52,782 nt of DNA from Escherichia phage vB_EcoM_swi3. Where the stretch lies: sequence record MT768059.1; one strand, 5' to 3'. Within the stretch, counting starts at the first letter, position 1; each line of letters opens with the position of its first letter. Of the stretch, positions 1 to 45,749 are shown in pieces. Below the pieces are notes generated by a model. It was not told the DNA's origin, searched no databases, and saw nothing but the letters and a program-made list of their open reading frames with translations. The position numbers and the translations under genes are program-made.

Positions 1-121
1 ACTTAGAGGTGTCTATATGTATGATCCGGTTTATCTCTTTATTAATATCAGAACCGGATGAAAAAAATTTACGCTGGCGAAAAAAATAAAAAAGCCGGAT
101 TGATAAATAAATCTGTAGACG

Positions 122-150
122 TTTACACTATAAAAAAGATGTGTTACAAT
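122..150 (+). promoter_or_regulatory. sigma70-like promoter (TTTACA-N17-TACAAT) upstream of 205..636
   Basis: Hexamers and 17-nt spacing read directly; 8-bp inverted repeat ATCCGGTT/AACCGGAT lies upstream at ~21..56. Confidence 0.45.
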
Positions 151-204
151 ATTTATCAATGTTGCTGATTACCAAATCTTTGGATTATATACGAGGCTGA
201 ATAA

Positions 205-636
205 ATGGTTAATATAAGACAGAAAGGACAGAACTTTGAGCGTAAAATGGCTAAGAAGTTCAATAGCTCGTTCGGATTAACTGTTGAGCGCAATCTTCAA
301 CAGTCTATTAATGGCGGGGATGACTTGCTGGGTGTACCGTTTTTCAGTGTTGAACTGAAGAAGCACAATACCAAGTCTATCGGAACATGGTGGAGACAGT
401 GTGCGGCATCGGCAAAGGCTCAGAACAAGATGCCGGTACTGATATACGAACTACCAAGAAAACAGCCTACCGTGGTGATGAATAAGGCTGATGTGATTGA
501 CTGTTTTCCAAGTGGCACGACTTTTAACGAGGCATCGAACCGCCTCTTTGTGGGTTTAGTAGAATTAACATGGGAACAATTTTGCCGGGTCTACAACTAT
601 TACGTTGCGCCCGGCACTCAATATCACGTCAATTAA
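205..636 (+). CDS. PD-(D/E)XK-fold nuclease, possibly Hjc/RecU-like Holliday junction resolvase
   Basis: 143 aa; N-terminal GQNFERK, then GGDDLL ... SVELKK matching D...(E)xK spacing of PD-(D/E)XK nucleases. Confidence 0.45.
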   Translation: MVNIRQKGQNFERKMAKKFNSSFGLTVERNLQQSINGGDDLLGVPFFSVELKKHNTKSIGTWWRQCAASAKAQNKMPVLIYELPRKQPTVVMNKADVIDCFPSGTTFNEASNRLFVGLVELTWEQFCRVYNYYVAPGTQYHVN

Positions 637-818
637 TCTTGTTTCAGCTCGTCACAAATGACACGCTGATTTTTGGCAGGGATAATACCAAGATTTAGCA
701 GGGTGTATGGACTATCAGCGACGCATTGTTCAACGGTAGTCCATTCAGGTTTGGATTCAACAATTTCGTAATTACAGTCGTGAGCTGCAATACATGTTGA
801 CAGTATTAAGCCAATCAC
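633..818 (-). CDS. hypothetical protein (GTG start)
   Basis: ORF continuing the leftward array; AGGTGA Shine-Dalgarno-like upstream; competes with antisense ORF 794..982. Confidence 0.25.
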   Translation of the reverse strand: MIGLILSTCIAAHDCNYEIVESKPEWTTVEQCVADSPYTLLNLGIIPAKNQRVICDELKQD

Positions 819-993
819 AAGTAATCACCTTCAACCAGGAACTCAAACAGCTGGTTGTAAACGTTGCAACCTTTAGCGAAAGAGCTTTCAGCAGGTTTAC
901 CGTCGCGGACGATCATCATATACTCACCGCCATGAATATCAACCCAGTATTGCATGCCACCTTTGACAGGGTTACGTTGTAAGAATTTAAACA

Positions 994-1239
994 TTATTTG
1001 CTCCTGATTCCAAGTTTATTCAATAACCAAATTGTCATGTCAACCCAGGTTAACGGTACAGTTTTCGGGGGTTGATAATCCCAGCAGCTTGCAGTTCTTT
1101 GTATTTCTGCTTGGCGCCGCTCCGCTTCGCGTAATACCGCATCGTCAGAAGTGCCGGCAGAAAAAAGATCGGTAACACCAGATAAATCGCGTTGATTAAC
1201 ACGTCGAGCAATGTCATATAAATCATCCTTAGAAAACAT
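994..1239 (-). CDS. hypothetical early protein
   Basis: 81-aa ORF downstream of minus-strand promoter at 1492..1520. Confidence 0.4.
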   Translation of the reverse strand: MFSKDDLYDIARRVNQRDLSGVTDLFSAGTSDDAVLREAERRQAEIQRTASCWDYQPPKTVPLTWVDMTIWLLNKLGIRSK

Positions 1240-1466
1240 AAGCCAATACCATAAGAATTATCAGAAAGACCACAACCAGCTTCCTCATCGCCCGACCTTC
1301 AGCATATGCAGGATTCACAACAGAATACTCAACAACATGTTTACAGCGGACCATAAGGCCTCCACTTGTGGGTTAATTCAAGCATGAGGACTTTCATCAA
1401 ATCCTCAGGATTGAATTAATTACCAGCTTTTAATCAAGCCCTGTCAGCGCCAGGACTTGACTAATA

Positions 1467-1670
1467 TCACTCTATCATTACCTGAACTACTATTATACAC
1501 TCTTTATTGAAGCGAGTAAACACTTTTCCACCATTAGTGCGTTTAGCCCCAGATTTTAGAGCTGACTGGCACCAGATATGCCACTCCTCAACTGTCAAGA
1601 ATTTTTGCTCAGCTTTGGGTGGCAATCCATTGGCAAGGTCTACCGTAGTAAATTTGACTAGTGGCATCAC
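1467..1670 (-). CDS. hypothetical early protein
   Basis: 67-aa ORF, 4-nt overlap with upstream ORF 1667..2056. Confidence 0.4.
   Translation of the reverse strand: MMPLVKFTTVDLANGLPPKAEQKFLTVEEWHIWCQSALKSGAKRTNGGKVFTRFNKECIIVVQVMIE
1492..1520 (-). promoter_or_regulatory. sigma70-like promoter (TTTACT-N17-TATAAT) on minus strand
   Basis: Reverse complement reads gTTTACTcgcttcaataaagagtgTATAAT; embedded in 3' end of ORF 1467..1670. Confidence 0.45.
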
Positions 1671-2056
1671 TTGACCTCAAATTTTGACTCGTCGTATTCC
1701 GGATCAGTCACGTCCCGGGTCGCACAATTTTTGATTGCTTCCCAGTAGCGTTGGGCGTCATCACCATCGACGTAAACCGTCCAGTGGCCGTAACCACCTT
1801 CAAATCTGTCCCAGGCTTGTTCCCAGACTTTGCCATCTTCCAGCTTGTACCAAGTTGGACGACTGTCAAACTCACGAATTGGATGGTACCCCATCAAGGG
1901 ATTCATCAGGTCGATAATGTCTTCCCGACTAATCTCCTGGTTCTCCCACAACACCGTCATGAATTGCTCAAACTTGAAGGCGTTTGGCAGAACTTTGAGT
2001 ACTTTACCGTCACAATATACGGTATAGATACCATCTTCGCATTTTGCACTGTACAT
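1667..2056 (-). CDS. hypothetical early protein
   Basis: 129-aa ORF in co-directional array. Confidence 0.5.
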   Translation of the reverse strand: MYSAKCEDGIYTVYCDGKVLKVLPNAFKFEQFMTVLWENQEISREDIIDLMNPLMGYHPIREFDSRPTWYKLEDGKVWEQAWDRFEGGYGHWTVYVDGDDAQRYWEAIKNCATRDVTDPEYDESKFEVK

Positions 2057-2129
2057 GTTTCTCTCTCCTGTTGATTGTGAATAATTTCAAAAATGAACTA
2101 TCACAACTTTGGACAGTTCATTGTTGAAA

Positions 2130-2318
2130 CTATGCTAACTTTGTTGCGATCTGAATTGTCAGCCGGAAATCTTCCATCAAGTTATCAAACTCTTTGGAAC
2201 CACCAACAGCATCAGATATTTGATCTTTCACAATTTGGGCATTTGATTCCAGTAATTCAATCAGGTGCGCCAATTCGTCTTCAGTCAATTTCAGATCTTT
2301 CATAATGCATCCACCCAA
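2130..2318 (-). CDS. hypothetical small acidic protein
   Basis: 62 aa, about 12 D/E vs 6 K/R. Confidence 0.4.
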   Translation of the reverse strand: MGGCIMKDLKLTEDELAHLIELLESNAQIVKDQISDAVGGSKEFDNLMEDFRLTIQIATKLA

Positions 2319-2557
2319 GCCATAACTTTTGCCAGTCTTACAACGTCTTCATGGTCCCGCTCGCCATCAGAAAATTCGCTGGCGATGATACCCATAATTG
2401 ACGCCAGATTCATGTTGATGATGTAGGCGTGTTGGCGCACTTCATCAATTCCTGAATCTATCACCAGTTCCGCAAATTCTTGTGAACCTTCATCCCATTC
2501 AGCCCAATACTGCTCAGCATAAAAGTCCAGTTCTTTTTTCATCTCAATGTCAGTCAT
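2300..2557 (-). CDS. hypothetical small acidic protein
   Basis: 85 aa, about 20 D/E vs 6 K/R. Confidence 0.45.
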   Translation of the reverse strand: MTDIEMKKELDFYAEQYWAEWDEGSQEFAELVIDSGIDEVRQHAYIINMNLASIMGIIASEFSDGERDHEDVVRLAKVMAWVDAL

Positions 2558-2562
2558 TTTGA

Positions 2563-2763
2563 TTACTCCTCAGAACCTGAAAATTTGTCGTCAATGGCTT
2601 CAACAATATAATCAAGAGTTGAAGTGTGAGAACTATCAGAAAAAGTGCCCATCTTCTCTAACTCAATCATCATATCACGCAAGGCCATCGCCTGGTCTTT
2701 GGTCAGTTTGATTTTAAGCATGTTTCTCTCCTGTTGATTGCGAATAACTTTCATTGATGGCAC
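2563..2763 (-). CDS. hypothetical small acidic protein
   Basis: 66 aa, acidic C-terminus. Confidence 0.4.
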   Translation of the reverse strand: MPSMKVIRNQQERNMLKIKLTKDQAMALRDMMIELEKMGTFSDSSHTSTLDYIVEAIDDKFSGSEE

Positions 2764-2785
2764 TACTTGAGCGCCATCTCAAAAA

Positions 2786-3355
2786 TTACTCTTCAGTTTC
2801 TTGTGCTTCAGTTTCAGGTTTTACTTCAGTATCAGGTTTTTTGCCAGTTACTGATTTGCCTTCGGTCACTTTACCAGATTTTACATCATTACGGTAGTAT
2901 GACATATATGACTGGATAACACGTTTTGCCTTAATATCATCCGCTTCCATTCCGCAAGCTTTCATCGCATCAGCGAGCGCCAATTTGGAGTCTTCCTTAT
3001 CCATCAGGTTGTAATCTTTGAACACCAGATAGCAGGTATCTTTAGTTGACGGACCAGATGACGATTTGCGAGAGCCACCAGCGGATGCTCGTGTTGTCGC
3101 AACTTTGACTTCTTCAACTTCCAGTTGGTTCAGCTCGTCAAACAAAGCCTTCACCAGCACTTCTTTGGAGTCTTTGACGCTTACAGTACTTTCATCATTA
3201 AGCGACTTAATCATCTTAATGATCTGGTTGTTGGCAAAGTACTGAAGACTATCCATCTGCACTACAATAGTGCCAAGACTTTCAGTAGTCAAACCAGATT
3301 TCACAGACTCGACAGAAAAAGCGGAAGTCAGGTAAACGTAGTTGATAGTTGTCAT
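2786..3355 (-). CDS. hypothetical protein with acidic C-terminal tail
   Basis: Start placed at internal ATG (3355) preceded by GAGGA; ORF-track start 3424 lies in palindrome GACAACTT..AAGTTGTC. Confidence 0.45.
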   Translation of the reverse strand: MTTINYVYLTSAFSVESVKSGLTTESLGTIVVQMDSLQYFANNQIIKMIKSLNDESTVSVKDSKEVLVKALFDELNQLEVEEVKVATTRASAGGSRKSSSGPSTKDTCYLVFKDYNLMDKEDSKLALADAMKACGMEADDIKAKRVIQSYMSYYRNDVKSGKVTEGKSVTGKKPDTEVKPETEAQETEE

Positions 3356-3450
3356 TTGATGTATCCTCGTTGATAGAATTTTTGATATGTGCCAATCCTT
3401 GGCAAGTAAGTCCAAACATGACAACTTTTGTCAAGTTGTCATGATTGAAA

Positions 3451-3753
3451 TCACTTCGCGCTTGCGTTTTCAACGGCTTGTACAACTTTCAACAAATGCC
3501 TGAAGTCATCATGATAGATTTCATTAAAGCCATCTGCCGCAAAGTTTTCGCCAATTAAGATCAGTCTTTCGCGGACCAAGTCAATCAATAGTTTATTGTC
3601 AGTTATTTCCGCACCTGTAACAAGTTCAACAAATAATTGCTGTACGTTATCGCAACGGATGTTACTTTCAATACACACTTGGCGCATGTCTTCAACTATT
3701 GACATGATTGTGACTTGCATTTCTACGTCAGAAGTGATGTTATTCAGTTTCAT
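3451..3753 (-). CDS. hypothetical small acidic protein
   Basis: 100 aa, about 17 D/E vs 9 K/R; first gene of leftward array next to control region. Confidence 0.45.
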   Translation of the reverse strand: MKLNNITSDVEMQVTIMSIVEDMRQVCIESNIRCDNVQQLFVELVTGAEITDNKLLIDLVRERLILIGENFAADGFNEIYHDDFRHLLKVVQAVENASAK

Positions 3754-3953
3754 AATAGTTACCTTTGTACTAGTTTCCAGGTGTGACTACTGTTACCAAT
3801 AGTCACTAGTTGAAACTACTACTTGTGTTACTATCAACAAGAAACATGTTACCAAATTGTTAAAGAGCAAAAGGTACCATTGACATCTACCAGATGTACC
3901 TGTTGACTGGTTAAGTACTACCTACCTAATCTAAACCATACCAATATCCTTTA

Positions 3954-3970
3954 GACCAGTTAGACTGGTC
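3954..3970. promoter_or_regulatory. perfect palindrome GACCAGT-TAG-ACTGGTC (putative operator)
   Basis: 7-bp arms with 3-bp spacer read directly; half-site GACTGGT recurs at 3905..3911. Confidence 0.4.
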
Positions 3971-4138
3971 AATCAGTCATCACATTCAATAAATATATAA
4001 TAGACCAATCGCTATTGATTGTACATAAAAGAATTGCAAGTTTATGCAAGTTTTTAGAAATGATAATCACTTGCGATTGATAGTGGTTCTCATATACAAT
4101 TGATATAGTTTCACATGTAATTATTCAACTCAAAATGG

Positions 4139-4370
4139 TCGGCAGGGGTTATAATAACATAGGGGTGCCACTTAAAGGAGCCGGCGAAATTATTTCTAAA
4201 AATATAATTTCAATCTGAATTATAGACGCTTTGTACTATAACGGCCGAAGTAGTTCACACGGTAATTGTACCAATCATAATAGTTACCAGAGTAATCATT
4301 TCAATTGAAATAGGTGCGGCGGGGGGTAATTTCGCAGGGGTGCTACCTGCCAGGAGCCAGCGGAATTTTT
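4139..4370. repeat. two copies of a ~57-bp GC-rich element, period ~176 bp
   Basis: 4139..4196 and 4315..4370 share GyCGGCrGGGG ... AGGGGTGCyAC ... AGGAGCCrGCGrAATT; flanked by AT-rich DNA. Confidence 0.5.
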
Positions 4371-4588
4371 TTATTTTTTGGTATTTTCTCCTTATCAGGA
4401 CCAATCATCATCAGAGTGATACGACAGGAGCTAACCTTTTGCCTAACACAATAATAAGTGAAGCCCCTCTAAAATTTTTTTATATTTTTCGGAAATTGTG
4501 TAGACACTCACTAAAAAGTGGTGTACTTTCTCTCCTCCACGCGCTATCATTAATGTGAATCATCAAACGGCCTCACGGTCTCCTACTT

Positions 4589-5086
4589 GTGGGTAACATT
4601 ATGAAAATTGTTCAATTAGAGCCATATCCGCCTCAATTGGCTATCGTTTGCAGCGAAAAAGAGCACGAAGAGCTCCAAAAACTGATGGATTTGCCTGATT
4701 TTGGCAACTGGAATGACCGAGAAACACGTACTGCATCTACCTTTACGTTCTCTCGCGTTAATTATCCGTACCTGTTAATTGTCGTCGAACTGTACCACCC
4801 GGACGACCTGAAGTACAACACCATTTCCCACGAAGGCATTCACGTAATGTCGTCGCTGATGAACTATGTTGGCCTTAAATACGACCCAGAAAACGATGAA
4901 TGGTACGCATATCAGCATGATTTCATCGTAAATGCCATTTGTAAGGCCCATGACGAGTACATTGAGCGCCAAAAAACGCCAAAAACTAAGCCAAAAATCG
5001 AAACAGGTAACCATCCTGCAATACTGCCACAAGACGTTATGAACTCGCTTTTGACTGACACTACTGGGGACTTTTTAGGTGATTAA
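4589..5086 (+). CDS. hypothetical protein with HExxH motif (possible small zinc metallopeptidase)
   Basis: 165 aa; motif ISHEGIHV; first gene of rightward block. Confidence 0.4.
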   Translation: MGNIMKIVQLEPYPPQLAIVCSEKEHEELQKLMDLPDFGNWNDRETRTASTFTFSRVNYPYLLIVVELYHPDDLKYNTISHEGIHVMSSLMNYVGLKYDPENDEWYAYQHDFIVNAICKAHDEYIERQKTPKTKPKIETGNHPAILPQDVMNSLLTDTTGDFLGD

Positions 5087-5753
5087 TATTATCTTTGCAA
5101 TGGGCCAAAATGGGGAATTCGGGTTATCTCCGGAGTTTATGAAGCATCAGGTTGACTCGTGCAAGACCATGGAAGAGGTTCGTGCACTTCCTAAATCGGG
5201 TCTACCCTGGAAATGTCAGTCAGACATGCTCTTTTTCAGGACTATGACTAATTCAATTGCGACAGAACCAGGCTATAATGCATATCAGCAACTACGTGGA
5301 CAATTCCCAAATGACCAGTTGCGAAACATGATAGCAGATGTAACGGTAAAAATGGTCGGACATAGTGTATTGTTAGCCGGTCGTAAAACGTATATGACTA
5401 TGAGTCTGCCTATGTCAGCCCACAGAATACTGCTGCCGGTATCTCGCCAGATTATGGCTTCAGAAGGCTACAATAATCTGGGTGAGATGGCCGCAGACCT
5501 TGAGTCCAGAGGTACTGACGTCTGGATTGTAGGGGGTGCCGAGTTGATACTTTCGGCCCTTGAAGAACACGCAAAAGACTTACTCCGTATCGACAACATG
5601 TTTATCAGTACGATCAAGCAATCAGGTCCAAGTGATATTTTAATGGATTGTAGCAAATTAATGATGTACATTGATAGCGACTTCACTTATAATGATGAAT
5701 ATGTTGATAACAAACAAGTGCTGATACAACGCTACAGGAGTTTACACAAATGA
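5079..5753 (+). CDS. dihydrofolate reductase-like protein
   Basis: 224 aa; LPW, GRKTY and VGGAEL blocks match DHFR conserved blocks (compare E. coli FolA, T4 Frd), with insertions; GTG start. Confidence 0.65.
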   Translation: MINIIFAMGQNGEFGLSPEFMKHQVDSCKTMEEVRALPKSGLPWKCQSDMLFFRTMTNSIATEPGYNAYQQLRGQFPNDQLRNMIADVTVKMVGHSVLLAGRKTYMTMSLPMSAHRILLPVSRQIMASEGYNNLGEMAADLESRGTDVWIVGGAELILSALEEHAKDLLRIDNMFISTIKQSGPSDILMDCSKLMMYIDSDFTYNDEYVDNKQVLIQRYRSLHK

Positions 5754-6256
5754 ACATCATAATCGAGGGGCCCGACAATGCTGGTAAAAGTACACTTATT
5801 GAGTTCCTTAAATCTCGTACTGGCCGCGATGTTATTCATAATACTGTTGATAAAGACCCCGAATCGGTCATGGCTAAACAGGCCAAAGAAAACGCGTTGG
5901 AAGGCAATTGCATTTATGACCGTAGCGCTGTTATATCTGAGTATATCTATTGTCTGGTTCTTCAACGTACGCCTGTCATCAATATTAATGTATCACATGT
6001 AGCAGATATGTGTGACAACGCCATCGTTATCTTTTGTATGCCACCTGTTGAAAAGGTACTGGCAACTACAAAAGACGAGATGCCTGGTGTTGTGGAAAAT
6101 CTTGAGGCGTTATACAATCAGTATGACAACCTCATTGACGAGCTGGTTATGATGAGTAAGCAGTTCTTCATTTACGACTGGACTGTTGAAGAAGACGGTC
6201 CTGAAGCAGTTCTCGAATATATCAACGAACGTATTAATAAGGAGTGGAACAAATGA
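5750..6256 (+). CDS. thymidylate kinase-like dNMP kinase
   Basis: 168 aa; P-loop IIIEGPDNAGKST and YDRS motif as in Tmk (IVIEGLEGAGKTT / DRH). Confidence 0.7.
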   Translation: MNIIIEGPDNAGKSTLIEFLKSRTGRDVIHNTVDKDPESVMAKQAKENALEGNCIYDRSAVISEYIYCLVLQRTPVININVSHVADMCDNAIVIFCMPPVEKVLATTKDEMPGVVENLEALYNQYDNLIDELVMMSKQFFIYDWTVEEDGPEAVLEYINERINKEWNK

Positions 6257-37541: not shown

Positions 37542-38426
37542 TTATACGGCCATTTGGAGTTTGATGTTTGGCATTGGTTTGTACTTCTCAACCATTGGCG
37601 TAACATCGGCAGGAGTGAAGTCAAACACTGACACGTCATAAATTGCATTAATGTCAGGACGACCTTCAAAGTTAGTGTCCAGTGTAGTATCAGAATTGCT
37701 TACGATACGTTGCAGGAAAATCTTTGCCGCATCGATATGATTCTGATAGATGTGATAATCACCCAGCGTAACAGTCATATCACCTACCCCAGTACCCAGC
37801 TCAGCAGCAATGGTAATCTGCAACATCTGATGCAACAGAATATCGTGAGGCAGACCAAGGATAACATCCGCGCTACGCATGTGGAACATCAGCTCTAATT
37901 CATTACGGTTGTTAATGAACAGCTGAAAACCATGGTAACAAGGCGGAAGGGCCATGGCGTCCATCTCTTGTGGGTTCCATGCCGTAATGTATGCCCGGCG
38001 GTCAGTAGGCTTAACCTTCAGCGTTTCAATAACGTCTTTAAGCTGGTTAGTAAGAACACCATTCTTATAGAATGGCTTAATCCATTGCACGCCGTACACA
38101 GGACCTAAGTCACGATTGTCTGGTGTACCCCAACGTTTGTTTGCATCCTGCAGGTTACCTTCCCACCAGTTGCAGCCAAAGCCTTTGAGTGTGTCGACGT
38201 TTGAAATGCCGTTGATAAAGCAGTAAAGCTCAGCAGCAACAGCTTTGATGTTAACAGGTTTAAATACCGGCACCATCAGTTTGTTGTCGTTAAAAGCCAG
38301 CTTAAACGCTGTACCAAAACAACGGCGTGTACCAACACCTGTACGGTCTACAACATCCTCGCCTTTACGCAGGATAAAAGAAATGATGTCGCTGTAAAGA
38401 GAATCGACAGTGCTGTATGTTTTCAT
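37542..38426 (-). CDS. thymidylate synthase-family enzyme with Asp at uracil-specifying position (putative dCMP C5-hydroxymethylase or -methyltransferase)
   Basis: 294 aa; DRTGVGT, DLGPVYG, catalytic-Cys motif ALPPCY, RSADVILGLPHD, GDYHIYQNH; ThyA N177 equivalent is D195 (codon at 37842..37844). Confidence 0.8.
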   Translation of the reverse strand: MKTYSTVDSLYSDIISFILRKGEDVVDRTGVGTRRCFGTAFKLAFNDNKLMVPVFKPVNIKAVAAELYCFINGISNVDTLKGFGCNWWEGNLQDANKRWGTPDNRDLGPVYGVQWIKPFYKNGVLTNQLKDVIETLKVKPTDRRAYITAWNPQEMDAMALPPCYHGFQLFINNRNELELMFHMRSADVILGLPHDILLHQMLQITIAAELGTGVGDMTVTLGDYHIYQNHIDAAKIFLQRIVSNSDTTLDTNFEGRPDINAIYDVSVFDFTPADVTPMVEKYKPMPNIKLQMAV

Positions 38427-39019
38427 TAAAACAGTTCCTTTTGAGCCGGGTTAACGTGTGCGTCGATGATGGCCTGGATGTCAGGTGCTTTCCATCCTTC
38501 AGGCTTAACAATATCCTGACCAGACTTATGCTTGCTGTTGCTTGCATCAGGCTTAGCGCGTTCTTTCGCCATGTTAGCAGCCTGTACAGCATCCCATGCT
38601 GCGTCAAGTGGCCAGTTGTTGTTTGCACACCAGGTAATCAGGTGGATAATTAACTGGGCCAGACGGTCGCAATGAGTGTCTTCAGTATCCTTAACGTATA
38701 CAATAAGGCCATCAGCATCGAAACGGTCCATAAATCCGCATGGCGTAGTTAACAGAATAGGATACTCAAATTCGTTGGTGAACCATGCAGTCTGGTCATA
38801 CAGGTATAACGTACCTGCAGCGATGTAAATTAAATCTACAATACCGTCTAAGAATCCAGCTTTATCGCCGTCCTTCTTAGCTTGTTTAATTTCTTCCATC
38901 TCCTCAATAAGACGGTCGTAGCGAAGCTTGAACTCAGGTTTACCGCCTTGACTAACAGGCTTGAGGTCAAACTTCTCATGAAAAGCGGTAACGCCTGCAG
39001 CAATTTTACTGAATCGCAT
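38426..39019 (-). CDS. putative MazG-like (all-alpha) nucleoside triphosphate pyrophosphohydrolase
   Basis: ~197 aa from ATG at 39019 after GGAG; EExxE motif (LIEEMEEI) and downstream acidic helix (DGIVDLIY). Confidence 0.45.
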   Translation of the reverse strand: MRFSKIAAGVTAFHEKFDLKPVSQGGKPEFKLRYDRLIEEMEEIKQAKKDGDKAGFLDGIVDLIYIAAGTLYLYDQTAWFTNEFEYPILLTTPCGFMDRFDADGLIVYVKDTEDTHCDRLAQLIIHLITWCANNNWPLDAAWDAVQAANMAKERAKPDASNSKHKSGQDIVKPEGWKAPDIQAIIDAHVNPAQKELF

Positions 39020-42590: not shown

Positions 42591-43469
42591 TTATTTTAAG
42601 GAAAGTTTAACGGGCTTCTCATCCTGCGGGAAGACATCAGCAGGGCGATAATCATCACAAGCTGCTAATTGCTCTTCGATTGTTTCGAGTTCTTTCTGGT
42701 GCTTGTTGCAATACCACACTTTGCCCTGAAGCGGTTTACTGTAATGGCAGGTTCTGCAGTTCCTGTCTGGCATTGCCCCTTTGTGGCACAGGTGATGGTA
42801 TTCGCACATCCCTGGTTTGCACTCCCACCAAATAGGCGATTCAGAAATCTTCGGCATATCCAAACCAGATTCCGCATATACAACAGCCTCCGCTTTACTC
42901 AGTTGTATGTCGCTTTCCAGTAAGTCAATCTCGACCACTTCAAAATACATCTCGTCAGTGTTCTTATTGATTGCAATGTACACAGCTTGATTCAGCTTAA
43001 GCTTCCGCATGTATACCTGCATCTGGGCGTAGTGTACCGGCTTACTTGCTTTAACAGACTTGAGCTTGACTAACTCCTTAAACGACTTATCGCCATGCGT
43101 CTTGAACTCAGCAAGTGCCCATACGCCTTTGTATTTAATTACACAGTCACAAGACCCAGAGAAGATGTCATTGAATTCGTGTATGCGCCACTGCTTACCA
43201 GTCTTGGGATTGACGTCCAGCACTTCGTCACATACGGTGCGAAGCCACTTTACAATTCTGCTTTCTTCAAGGTTACCACGTTCAAACAGACGAAGTTGCT
43301 TAGCCGAAAACTTCTCCTTGAACGACCAGTGCAGAACGTGCCAAAGATAGCGATAGCAGTTGTGTCCTATCTGCGATGCTCCAAGATGCCCGCGTCGTTC
43401 TTCTCTTTCGTGGGCTTCGACTATCTTGATGTCAATACGTTTCTGCAGGTCGTCAAACGGACTTGGCAT
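42591..43469 (-). CDS. PD-(D/E)XK nuclease, Cas4/RecB-like, with C-terminal Cys cluster
   Basis: Start at ATG 43469 after GGAG; motif D ... EFK (DCVIKYKGVWALAEFK); C-terminal CKPGMCEYHHLCHK ... CRTCH. Confidence 0.55.
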   Translation of the reverse strand: MPSPFDDLQKRIDIKIVEAHEREERRGHLGASQIGHNCYRYLWHVLHWSFKEKFSAKQLRLFERGNLEESRIVKWLRTVCDEVLDVNPKTGKQWRIHEFNDIFSGSCDCVIKYKGVWALAEFKTHGDKSFKELVKLKSVKASKPVHYAQMQVYMRKLKLNQAVYIAINKNTDEMYFEVVEIDLLESDIQLSKAEAVVYAESGLDMPKISESPIWWECKPGMCEYHHLCHKGAMPDRNCRTCHYSKPLQGKVWYCNKHQKELETIEEQLAACDDYRPADVFPQDEKPVKLSLK

Positions 43470-43938
43470 TGTTAAACTCCTCAACGCTGAATTCATCGTA
43501 TACAATATTATGTGCCCACAAATGGGCGACGGCATTTGCCATACTGTCTTTCCATTTGGATTGTGAAGCTGTATGAGCCAATGCAACTACCCGAACCAGG
43601 TTAAGGTTGGCTATCAGCATATCTGCACAATGTTCGCACGGCGGGTAGGTTATGTAGATGGTAACCGGGCCTAATGAAGGAGTGTCTAACTCTCTCCTTA
43701 TATTAGCTAAGGTGTTTATCTCGCTATGAATAGTTAGAGCGTTCTTAAGGCTATTAGGCACTATTCTTATAGAGTCTAACTGCGTAGGCAGACCATTATA
43801 TCCAGTGGAAATAATACGCTTGTTCTGGTCCACAAGAACGCTACCGACTTGACGTTTCGGGTCCTTCGACCAGCTCGCAACTTCACAAGCTATGCGCATA
43901 AACCGCCTGTCCCACTTGTCCATCTTCTTCTTTTGCAT
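43453..43938 (-). CDS. dCMP deaminase
   Basis: 161 aa; zinc-binding HSE and PCEHC motifs of CMP/dCMP deaminases. Confidence 0.8.
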   Translation of the reverse strand: MQKKKMDKWDRRFMRIACEVASWSKDPKRQVGSVLVDQNKRIISTGYNGLPTQLDSIRIVPNSLKNALTIHSEINTLANIRRELDTPSLGPVTIYITYPPCEHCADMLIANLNLVRVVALAHTASQSKWKDSMANAVAHLWAHNIVYDEFSVEEFNNAKSV

Positions 43939-44634: not shown

Positions 44635-45519
44635 TTATTCGCTGGTTCCTTTCTCAGCTTGAGCGGCTTTCTTCGCCATCCAGGCTTGGTGCTTCTCTTT
44701 CGATTCGTCCGAACCGATTTTAGTGAGCTGCACGTTCGGGTCGTCGTTCTGCATCTGTTCTGCAGCTCGACCTGTCAGGAGCAGGTAGCTGTCTGACTCC
44801 GGATGATAGTACCACAGCTGGTAAGGATGATAGCCTTGCAGCTTGTCATAAATCCAGCCCAGGTCAGCAGGTTCACGTGCATCCAGTTCACGGCCTGGTG
44901 CGTTACGGCACTTAGCTTCCCATTGATAGTCGGGCTGTGTCTGGATGTAGCGCTCGCTGTTACCATTTGCATCAGGTGCAGTCATACGTAAAGCAAGCAC
45001 CGCATCCATAAGATACGGCAGTTGTTTAGGTAACTGCTGACCAGGCATAAGTGGTGAATACAACATTGCACCACTAACCTCGTCCTTGTTCTTCTCAAGC
45101 TTGCAAAGGTATGCAACGCTGAAAGGCAAGTCACGGAACTGACGCATGATATACATCATCTTGTCGTTGGTGTTACCATACGCCTGTCGTTTGTCGTTGA
45201 CCTGCGACTTCTCATAGTCCAGACAAACTTCAGCCACATCTGACAGCGAGTCGAAAATCAGATGCTCATACTTCTGCGCATCCTTACTTTCGGTAAGCCA
45301 TTTGTACAGCGCCAGAATGTCGTTGAACGTATTGATTGGCGTAGAGTCGATGTCAGCATCTGCGATCGACATCAAACCGCCTTCAGCGTTAATGACAAGA
45401 ACCTTATCGTGAGGCAAGGTCTTAGCCAGGCTGGTTTTACCAACACCTGATGCGCCGTAAATAGCGACCTTAGGTCGCTTATTTTCTACGGCTTGTTTAG
45501 TAGATACAATCTGAACCAT
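44635..45519 (-). CDS. RecA-fold P-loop ATPase, Sak4-like
   Basis: 294 aa; Walker A KVAIYGASGVGKTS near N-terminus, Walker B-like LIFDSLSD. Confidence 0.5.
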   Translation of the reverse strand: MVQIVSTKQAVENKRPKVAIYGASGVGKTSLAKTLPHDKVLVINAEGGLMSIADADIDSTPINTFNDILALYKWLTESKDAQKYEHLIFDSLSDVAEVCLDYEKSQVNDKRQAYGNTNDKMMYIMRQFRDLPFSVAYLCKLEKNKDEVSGAMLYSPLMPGQQLPKQLPYLMDAVLALRMTAPDANGNSERYIQTQPDYQWEAKCRNAPGRELDAREPADLGWIYDKLQGYHPYQLWYYHPESDSYLLLTGRAAEQMQNDDPNVQLTKIGSDESKEKHQAWMAKKAAQAEKGTSE

Positions 45520-45749
45520 TAATGATAGTCCTCGTAAAGTGATTCTTCATCGCAGTACATACGATAAAGAGCTTCTTCGGCTTCTTCCAGGGTGTCAAAC
45601 TCCTCGCCACAGACGGAGTATTTTGTGGGTTCATCGAATGACTCGACGATGTGCCAGTCATGATGAATACCGTATGTCCACAAGTCGCAGTCGTCTTTTG
45701 CAACAAGCTTACGTGTGGAACGAAATTGTGCTAGAGTATTGATGCTCAT
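45519..45749 (-). CDS. hypothetical protein
   Basis: Start moved to ATG 45749 after GAGGAGAGAG because promoter-like TATAAT lies at 45777..45782. Confidence 0.4.
   Translation of the reverse strand: MSINTLAQFRSTRKLVAKDDCDLWTYGIHHDWHIVESFDEPTKYSVCGEEFDTLEEAEEALYRMYCDEESLYEDYH

Follow-up and report, generated by a model that had tools for sequence, protein, structure and literature searches.

A cluster of small acidic proteins in the terminal repeat region of Escherichia phage vB_EcoM_swi3

The 52,782-base sequence from Escherichia phage vB_EcoM_swi3 (MT768059.1), referred to here as the window, is the genome of a Rosemountvirus (a myovirus of Salmonella and E. coli). Close to its left end lies a leftward run of small open reading frames (ORFs), whose products all carry a net negative charge (Table 1). 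Five of them (g100, g189, g52, g85 and g57) had been singled out in a first-pass annotation as a cluster of small, strongly acidic early proteins, of the form typical for DNA-mimic anti-restriction proteins and many anti-CRISPR proteins. All five are on the minus strand and net negative, and the composition given for g85 (about 20 D/E against 6 K/R in 85 amino acids, aa) is exact. The isoelectric points (pI) of g57, g85, g52 and g100, and of g129, which belongs to the same run outside the range annotated earlier, are between 4.1 and 4.6. Two of the boundaries had to be moved: 2130..2318 (TTG) and 2563..2763 (GTG) are longest-ORF extensions, not likely starts, and the better starts are ATG 2303 for g57 (57 aa) and ATG 2721 for g52 (52 aa), both with Shine-Dalgarno-like sequences and matching the annotations of relatives. 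The genes are real, they lie within the terminal repeat of the phage, their acidity is clustered and conserved through gene turnover, and they show no relation to known families.

The window and Escherichia phage vB_EcoM_IntR (OM313460.1) are collinear base for base, with equal length and gene coordinates and with 2,051 substitutions and no indels across the first 50 kb. Several proteins of the window are nearer to those of other isolates (g57 has 93% identity to IntR and 100% to BP63). Positions 600-4600 show 93-99% identity with ~40 other isolates, and the cluster genes are labelled 'hypothetical protein' across all the relatives' records. Substitutions with respect to relatives are biased to the third codon position in every cluster ORF (3/1/11 for g100, and 11/4/44, 2/0/8, 21/11/38 and 3/2/8 for the others), and therefore the ORFs are real genes under purifying selection.

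The whole small-ORF cluster is found inside a region equivalent to a long direct terminal repeat (DTR), which is carried once in the assembly. In phage vB_SalM_Sz (PP236111, 57,020 bp), deposited with both genome ends, bases 1-4263 are the same as bases 52758-57020 at 100% identity, and this 4,263-bp repeat maps onto positions 76-4358 of the window. A 3,699-bp DTR, with 11 small genes in the same order, was determined by PhageTerm for the relative fHy-Eco03 (PMC8145870), and restriction mapping of phage S144 placed the physical end between the acidic cluster and the rightward genes (PMC7432712). Being inside the DTR, the cluster occurs at each end of the virion DNA, which should place it in the first DNA that enters the cell, whichever end leads. 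Genes for host interaction or anti-defence would be expected at such a site. This placement is the main addition made here; the families themselves are uncharacterised orphans in a known genomic setting.

Table 1. Positions and properties of the cluster genes and of the other features discussed (D/E, acidic residues; K/R, basic residues).
Feature	Position	Strand	Description
DTR-equivalent region	76..4358		holds the whole small-ORF cluster; carried once in the assembly
g100	3451..3753	-	100 aa, net -8, pI 4.54, -0.080/residue; first gene after the leader
g189	2786..3355	-	189 aa, net -5, pI 5.04, -0.026/residue
g52	2563..2721	-	52 aa, net -5, pI 4.59, -0.096/residue
g85	2300..2557	-	85 aa, 20 D/E vs 6 K/R, net -14, pI 4.10, -0.165/residue
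g57	2130..2303	-	57 aa, net -6, pI 4.42, -0.105/residue
g129	1667..2056	-	129 aa, net -11, pI 4.54; same run, outside the range annotated earlier
Conserved non-coding control region	3754..4358 (DTR part)	-	promoter scan and five-genome alignment
Thymidylate-synthase-family enzyme	37542-38426		
PRA-PH/MazG-like pyrophosphohydrolase	38426-39019		
dCMP deaminase	43453-43938		
Dihydrofolate reductase (DHFR)	5079-5753		
Nucleotide kinase	5750-6256		

The proteome of the phage is acidic overall (72 coding sequences, median pI 5.5, 71% below pI 7), so that net negative charge alone is unremarkable. The claim of an acidic cluster nevertheless stands when gene order is taken into account: five of the ten proteins with pI < 4.6 in the genome fall in the six-gene run 1667-3753. 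In gene-order permutations over all coding sequences the P values are 0.005 (count of pI < 4.6) and 0.012 (mean charge density), and for proteins of <= 190 aa they are 0.015 and 0.046, respectively. Individually, g85 is the only charge outlier of the cluster (z = -2.96); per residue, it ranks second in acidity in the genome. Genes further down the operon (1229-1667) are basic, which shows that the bias is not operon-wide. The small-ORF region is also AT-rich (GC 0.39-0.40 compared with ~0.46-0.49 in the rest of the genome); this would not account for the acidity, since Lys gains from AT-rich codons no less than Asp/Glu does.

Judging from the genomes of relatives, the locus behaves as a cassette array, in which genes are swapped and the replacements are again acidic. 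In Sz and S144, g100 is replaced exactly from its start codon by a 49-aa ORF (net -8/-9), and Sz has an extra 57-aa ORF (net -7) in the same slot; g100 itself is found only in 19 Rosemountvirus records and in one protein cluster. The g52 gene, which has an ATG with an AGGAGAG Shine-Dalgarno sequence and ends 5 nt before the g85 start, is present in 44 phage records and absent from S144 and KM; it belongs to PHROG 35350 (unknown function). The C-terminal 75 aa of g129 form a domain, which KM and fHy-Eco03 encode as a separate protein; in these two phages the g189 homologue has another place in the cluster. From fHy-Eco03, g85 is apparently absent. Alternative ORFs of net -7 to -21 are located in the same cluster of Sz, S144 and KM. 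The most charged are S144 ORF74 (4476-4781 of the S144 locus; 101 aa, 23 D/E vs 2 K/R, net -21) and KM_79 (3053-3352 of the KM locus; 99 aa, net -16), both in the same operon and absent from the window. With its Ocr-like charge, this cassette outranks every protein of the window as a DNA-mimic candidate. Since the replacement cassettes are again acidic, acidity is a lasting property of the locus and not of one gene lineage. The very narrow distribution of the cluster families is typical of accessory genes.

The leftward operon would be transcribed from an intergenic region of ~836 nt (3754 to ~4588-4597). In an alignment of five genomes from two genera, the 3754-4597 spacer shows 82% mean column identity with long invariant blocks (the near-invariant ones at ~3755-3900 and ~3990-4110), and it is more conserved between Rosemountvirus and Loughboroughvirus than the adjoining genes are. 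Such conservation suggests a functional non-coding element, such as promoters/operators, an origin or a packaging signal. Candidate sigma-70 promoters were found by scanning, e.g. TGTACA-17-TATTAT at 4025..3997, and the S144 record has a same-strand promoter annotated at the equivalent place. The putative 5' leader (~240 nt, 3754-3995, minus strand) folds better than shuffled sequence (z = -2.67), and its long hairpin (~3755-3834) pairs the Shine-Dalgarno and start codon region of the first gene. The leader sequence is kept even in relatives with a swapped first gene, and it may act as a translational control element. No terminator-like site was found on the minus strand from 1203 to 4660. A non-coding RNA within the cluster was also considered and rejected, as the Rfam scan of 1-5200 returned nothing relevant.

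The ends of the repeat show further sequence features. Two GC-rich direct repeats (4138-4195 and 4310-4371; core AGGAGCC(G/A)GCG(A/G)AAT) lie in the AT-rich spacer, and the right boundary of the vB_SalM_Sz repeat, at 4358, falls within the second copy. A related motif, AAAAAAATTnCGCTGGC, is inverted at the left boundary (~76; 62-80). The GC-rich repeats and the inverted motif could be end-formation signals.

None of the cluster ORFs has a Pfam or NCBIfam match at E <= 1, models of Ocr, ArdA and ArdB-KlcA included, and phmmer/hmmsearch comparisons with the Protein Data Bank (PDB) gave chance-level matches only, also for Ocr and the solved anti-CRISPRs. For g52 there is no PDB, Pfam or NCBIfam match, and for g100 no PHROG, Pfam, NCBIfam or PDB match. 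Protein-database searches with g85 and with g100 retrieved only their own phage family, and an exhaustive phmmer search with g189 retrieved only its own family. The literature holds no paper characterising the cluster genes; the only functional data are a toxicity screen in fHy-Eco03 and two virion proteomes. A relationship between g57 and g52 as paralogues, considered because of their common 'M-K-x-x-KLT-x-D' start, was rejected (BLASTP E = 0.15).

For the composition of a DNA mimic, a D+E content of ~20-30% or more, few K/R and a low pI were required. The g85 protein (24% D/E, 7% K/R) is within this range, g57 and g52 lie at its border (21% D/E, with K/R at 11-12%), whereas g100 (17% D/E) and g189 (16% D/E) are below it. 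For calibration, the charge densities of two T7 proteins were computed: Ocr has -0.239/residue (34 D/E, 6 K/R in 117 aa) and Gp2 has -0.078/residue (64 aa). The very high, Ocr-like charge density is reached by none of g85, g57, g52, g100 and g189. With respect to the earlier suggestion that the ORFs are mimic-like in charge, four of the five have only -0.03 to -0.105/residue, far from Ocr and within the span of numerous ordinary small phage proteins, T7 Gp2 among them.

A set of 5.8 billion proteins holds roughly three sequence clusters of the g85 family. The AlphaFold2 model, made from a small alignment, is a five-helix bundle (predicted local distance difference test 95.8, predicted template modelling score 0.85), in which an uncharged central helix (residues 44-63) is wrapped by acidic helices. 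In a Foldseek comparison with viral models only the BP63 orthologue was found, with no specific structural relative, and g85 is predicted to be a compact bundle of an orphan family. In homologues of 44-53% identity the net charge is held at -10 to -14 while the individual acidic positions drift: just nine of the 20 keep an acidic residue in each of the two divergent homologues, with the unchanging ones grouped in 'WDE' (21-23) and 'EFxDGERDxxD' (61-71). With the charge density nearest to that of true mimics, g85 is the only credible DNA-mimic candidate in the cluster of the window. A 4-nt overlap (ATGA) between its stop codon and the start of g57 suggests that the two genes are translationally coupled, and both the adjacency and the overlap are kept in S144 (ORF78/ORF77). 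The g57 protein belongs to PHROG 29626 (unknown function). Another protein as acidic as g85 is encoded at 45519-45749 on the minus strand (76 aa, 19 D/E vs 6 K/R, net -13, -0.171/residue); it is located in the replication module, adjoins an AAA_24 ATPase and has no Pfam match.

The g189 protein is of a different kind from its acidic neighbours. It consists of two folded domains (1-85 and 100-162), a disordered linker (86-99) and a tail (163-189). The acidic tail previously described is net negative (-4), but it is a predicted disordered segment of mixed charge (8 D/E vs 4 K/R), absent from distant homologues and restricted to the Rosemount/Loughborough phages. The 145-aa core is near neutral (N-domain -5, linker +3, C-domain +1) and contains several invariant basic residues, and nucleic-acid binding is possible. 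The near-neutral two-domain core and the lineage-specific disordered tail speak against a mimic function for this ORF. The protein is a full-length member of PHROG 9997 / VOG4470 (E = 8e-58 over residues 2-160), a family without known function, whose members share the core at ~30% identity and include ORFs in the accessory region of T4-like Gaprivervirus; the charged tail is a Rosemount/Loughborough feature. In T4-like phages, the ~30%-identical relatives belong to groups of uncharacterised ORFs close to the genes for tRNAs and internal proteins. Mass spectrometry of purified particles detected homologues of g189 in both S144 and fHy-Eco03, which points to abundance more than to packaging, because both protein lists hold obvious non-structural enzymes.

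The DNA of fHy-Eco03 and of S144 resists most restriction enzymes in vitro (PMC8145870; PMC7432712). Together with the set of nucleotide-enzyme genes in the window (Table 1), this makes a modified base in the phage DNA likely. As targets, modification-dependent nucleases and repair enzymes thereby gain in relevance. As for toxicity in E. coli, the fHy-Eco03 homologue of g57 (g10) is not clearly toxic (next-generation sequencing ratio 1.50, plating 0.46), and g09 (75 aa, homologous to the C-terminal domain of g129) and g11 are non-toxic, while the product of another DTR gene, g05 (Gp05), is strongly toxic. Non-toxic homologues of g57 and of the g129 C-domain, beside the toxic Gp05, agree better with inhibitors of host functions that the cell can do without than with proteins that kill the host.

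Several known systems resemble the cluster in part. T7 Ocr (gp0.3) is a DNA-mimic inhibitor of type I restriction-modification and BREX. It is, as the cluster products would be, a small acidic helical protein encoded near the first-entering genome end, downstream of host-type promoters. The first-gene slot analogous to that of Ocr is held by g100, whereas g85 is the most similar to it in composition; in respect to charge, Ocr (29% D/E) is well above both g85 and g100, it is an elongated dimer where the g85 model is a compact bundle, and there is no sequence or fold relation. T4 Arn inhibits McrBC, T7 gp5.9 inhibits RecBCD, and Ugi targets a glycosylase. Arn and gp5.9 are acidic proteins of 50-90 aa from phages that need protection of modified DNA or of linear ends, as is likely here, and by analogy they may be the best-fitting functional parallel for a phage with modified DNA. 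The pre-early and host-takeover modules of T5 and SPO1 share with the cluster the many small one-strand ORFs of unknown function in a long direct terminal repeat, and in a relative of the present phage, too, at least one DTR gene yields a product with toxicity for the host. They differ in having no homologous genes, the present repeat is only ~4.3 kb, and the likeness is organisational. The small acidic RNA-polymerase binders T7 Gp2 and T4 AsiA are comparable to g57, g52 and g100 in size and charge (-0.08 to -0.105/residue), but without sequence similarity, and the tested homologues are non-toxic.

The reading we prefer, held tentatively and with somewhat less than even confidence, is that of an early-entering accessory operon of small soluble proteins acting by binding host factors. 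With the DTR at both packaged ends, the operon and its promoter/leader region would be in the first DNA to enter, and host RNA polymerase would probably transcribe it immediately. The products, which appear to be small, soluble, mostly helical and negatively charged, would most likely bind host proteins stoichiometrically. Positively charged nucleic-acid-binding surfaces are the likely targets, such as those of restriction/defence nucleases, repair/recombination enzymes or RNA polymerase, and the cell would in this way be conditioned for a phage with modified-base DNA. The DTR site, the conserved upstream region and a cassette array that keeps its acidity fit early accessory host-interaction genes. 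Several observations weigh against this reading. No characterised protein of anti-defence or host takeover is homologous or similar in fold, and the candidate promoters are consensus matches only. Among all proteins of <= 130 aa in this generally acidic proteome, 52% have pI < 5, and the acidity extends into the rightward nucleotide-metabolism genes (17 net-negative genes in a run), so that charge is a weak functional marker. Because the DNA of the relatives is already resistant to most restriction enzymes, the need for a classical anti-restriction (Ocr-type) protein is lower.

Of the other explanations, host takeover would make the proteins factors that bind the RNA polymerase or the replication proteins of the host and redirect them or shut them down (T7 Gp2, T4 AsiA/Alc, SPO1 or T5 type) instead of acting in anti-defence. 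S144 has no identified phage RNA polymerase, and its temporal control is thought to act on the host polymerase (PMC7432712). The size and charge of T7 Gp2 agree with this explanation, and so does the toxicity of one DTR product of a relative. The DTR site parallels the T5 pre-early and SPO1 modules. The non-toxic fHy-Eco03 g09, g10 and g11, and the differing gene content of close relatives, which is unexpected for essential functions, make it unlikely. True DNA mimicry, in which at least one protein, chiefly g85 and perhaps together with g57, would occupy the groove of a DNA-targeting defence enzyme in the manner of Ocr, Arn, gp5.9 or Ugi, is rather unlikely as well. The acidic composition of g85 and its retention in divergent homologues speak for it, as do the compact and confidently folded model, the location in the terminal repeat and the probably modified DNA, which would be open to attack by modification-dependent nucleases or by enzymes of repair; but positive evidence comes from composition only. 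Known DNA mimics have unrelated folds, so the novel fold of g85 does not exclude mimicry and its lack of structural relatives is not disqualifying.

Acidity could also be without a shared function, if unrelated small accessory ORFs simply reflect the general acidity of small soluble phage proteins. The overall pI distribution, the modest P values of the small-protein permutation and the lack of relationship between the families (as g57 and g52) are in line with this. It is improbable in view of the replacement cassettes, which are again strongly acidic, the conserved charge of the g85 family and the basic downstream genes of the operon. Anti-CRISPR proteins, which the first-pass annotation had considered together with DNA mimics, would be small, acidic, narrowly distributed and encoded at a variable locus, as here. 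No match to any solved anti-CRISPR and no helix-turn-helix aca-like gene in the repeat were found, and the prior is low for a virulent phage of hosts whose type I-E system is usually silent; this explanation is highly improbable. The DTR site, the conserved upstream region and the acidic cassette turnover thus support the earlier interpretation in part, as regards genomic context, while the sequence and fold relation is lacking: beyond charge, nothing links the cluster to known DNA mimics or anti-CRISPRs.

As it stands, the cluster adds to the many groups of small acidic phage proteins that are uncharacterised, and it would not surprise specialists. If any of the proteins is an anti-defence inhibitor, its family would be new and its orphan fold predicted with confidence. 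One improbable and more speculative reading is that g85 founds a group of new-fold inhibitors mimicking DNA or a nucleic-acid surface, confined to the Rosemount/Loughborough phages, which, maybe with g57, shields modified DNA from a modification-dependent nuclease or a repair enzyme, the operon being a set of swappable anti-defence cassettes with a conserved structured leader. An anti-defence inhibitor in the cluster could also explain differences in host range between near-identical isolates that differ only in these cassettes. The phages from which it would come already serve in the biocontrol of Salmonella and E. coli, and the DTR position gives a simple model of what this phage group expresses first.

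Two neighbouring loci are also of notice. Past the spacer, the first rightward gene (4598-5086, plus strand) encodes a 162-aa protein of net -12 (PHROG 1365, unknown function). The S144 record calls the homologue a 'putative Ku/Gam-like protein', but no Pfam Ku or Gam match was found for the window's protein at E <= 1. At the other side of the cluster, the homologue of Gp05 is an 81-aa ORF (994-1239, minus strand), which is overlapped in another frame by a 58-aa ORF (1050-1226, minus strand) with a strong transmembrane helix (KD19 2.42). The records disagree on which of the two frames is annotated. In comparisons with S144 and KM, substitutions favour the third codon position in the 58-aa frame (5/7/14 and 9/7/17) but not in the 81-aa frame (20/7/14 and 23/13/20), and therefore the membrane peptide may be the real, toxic product.

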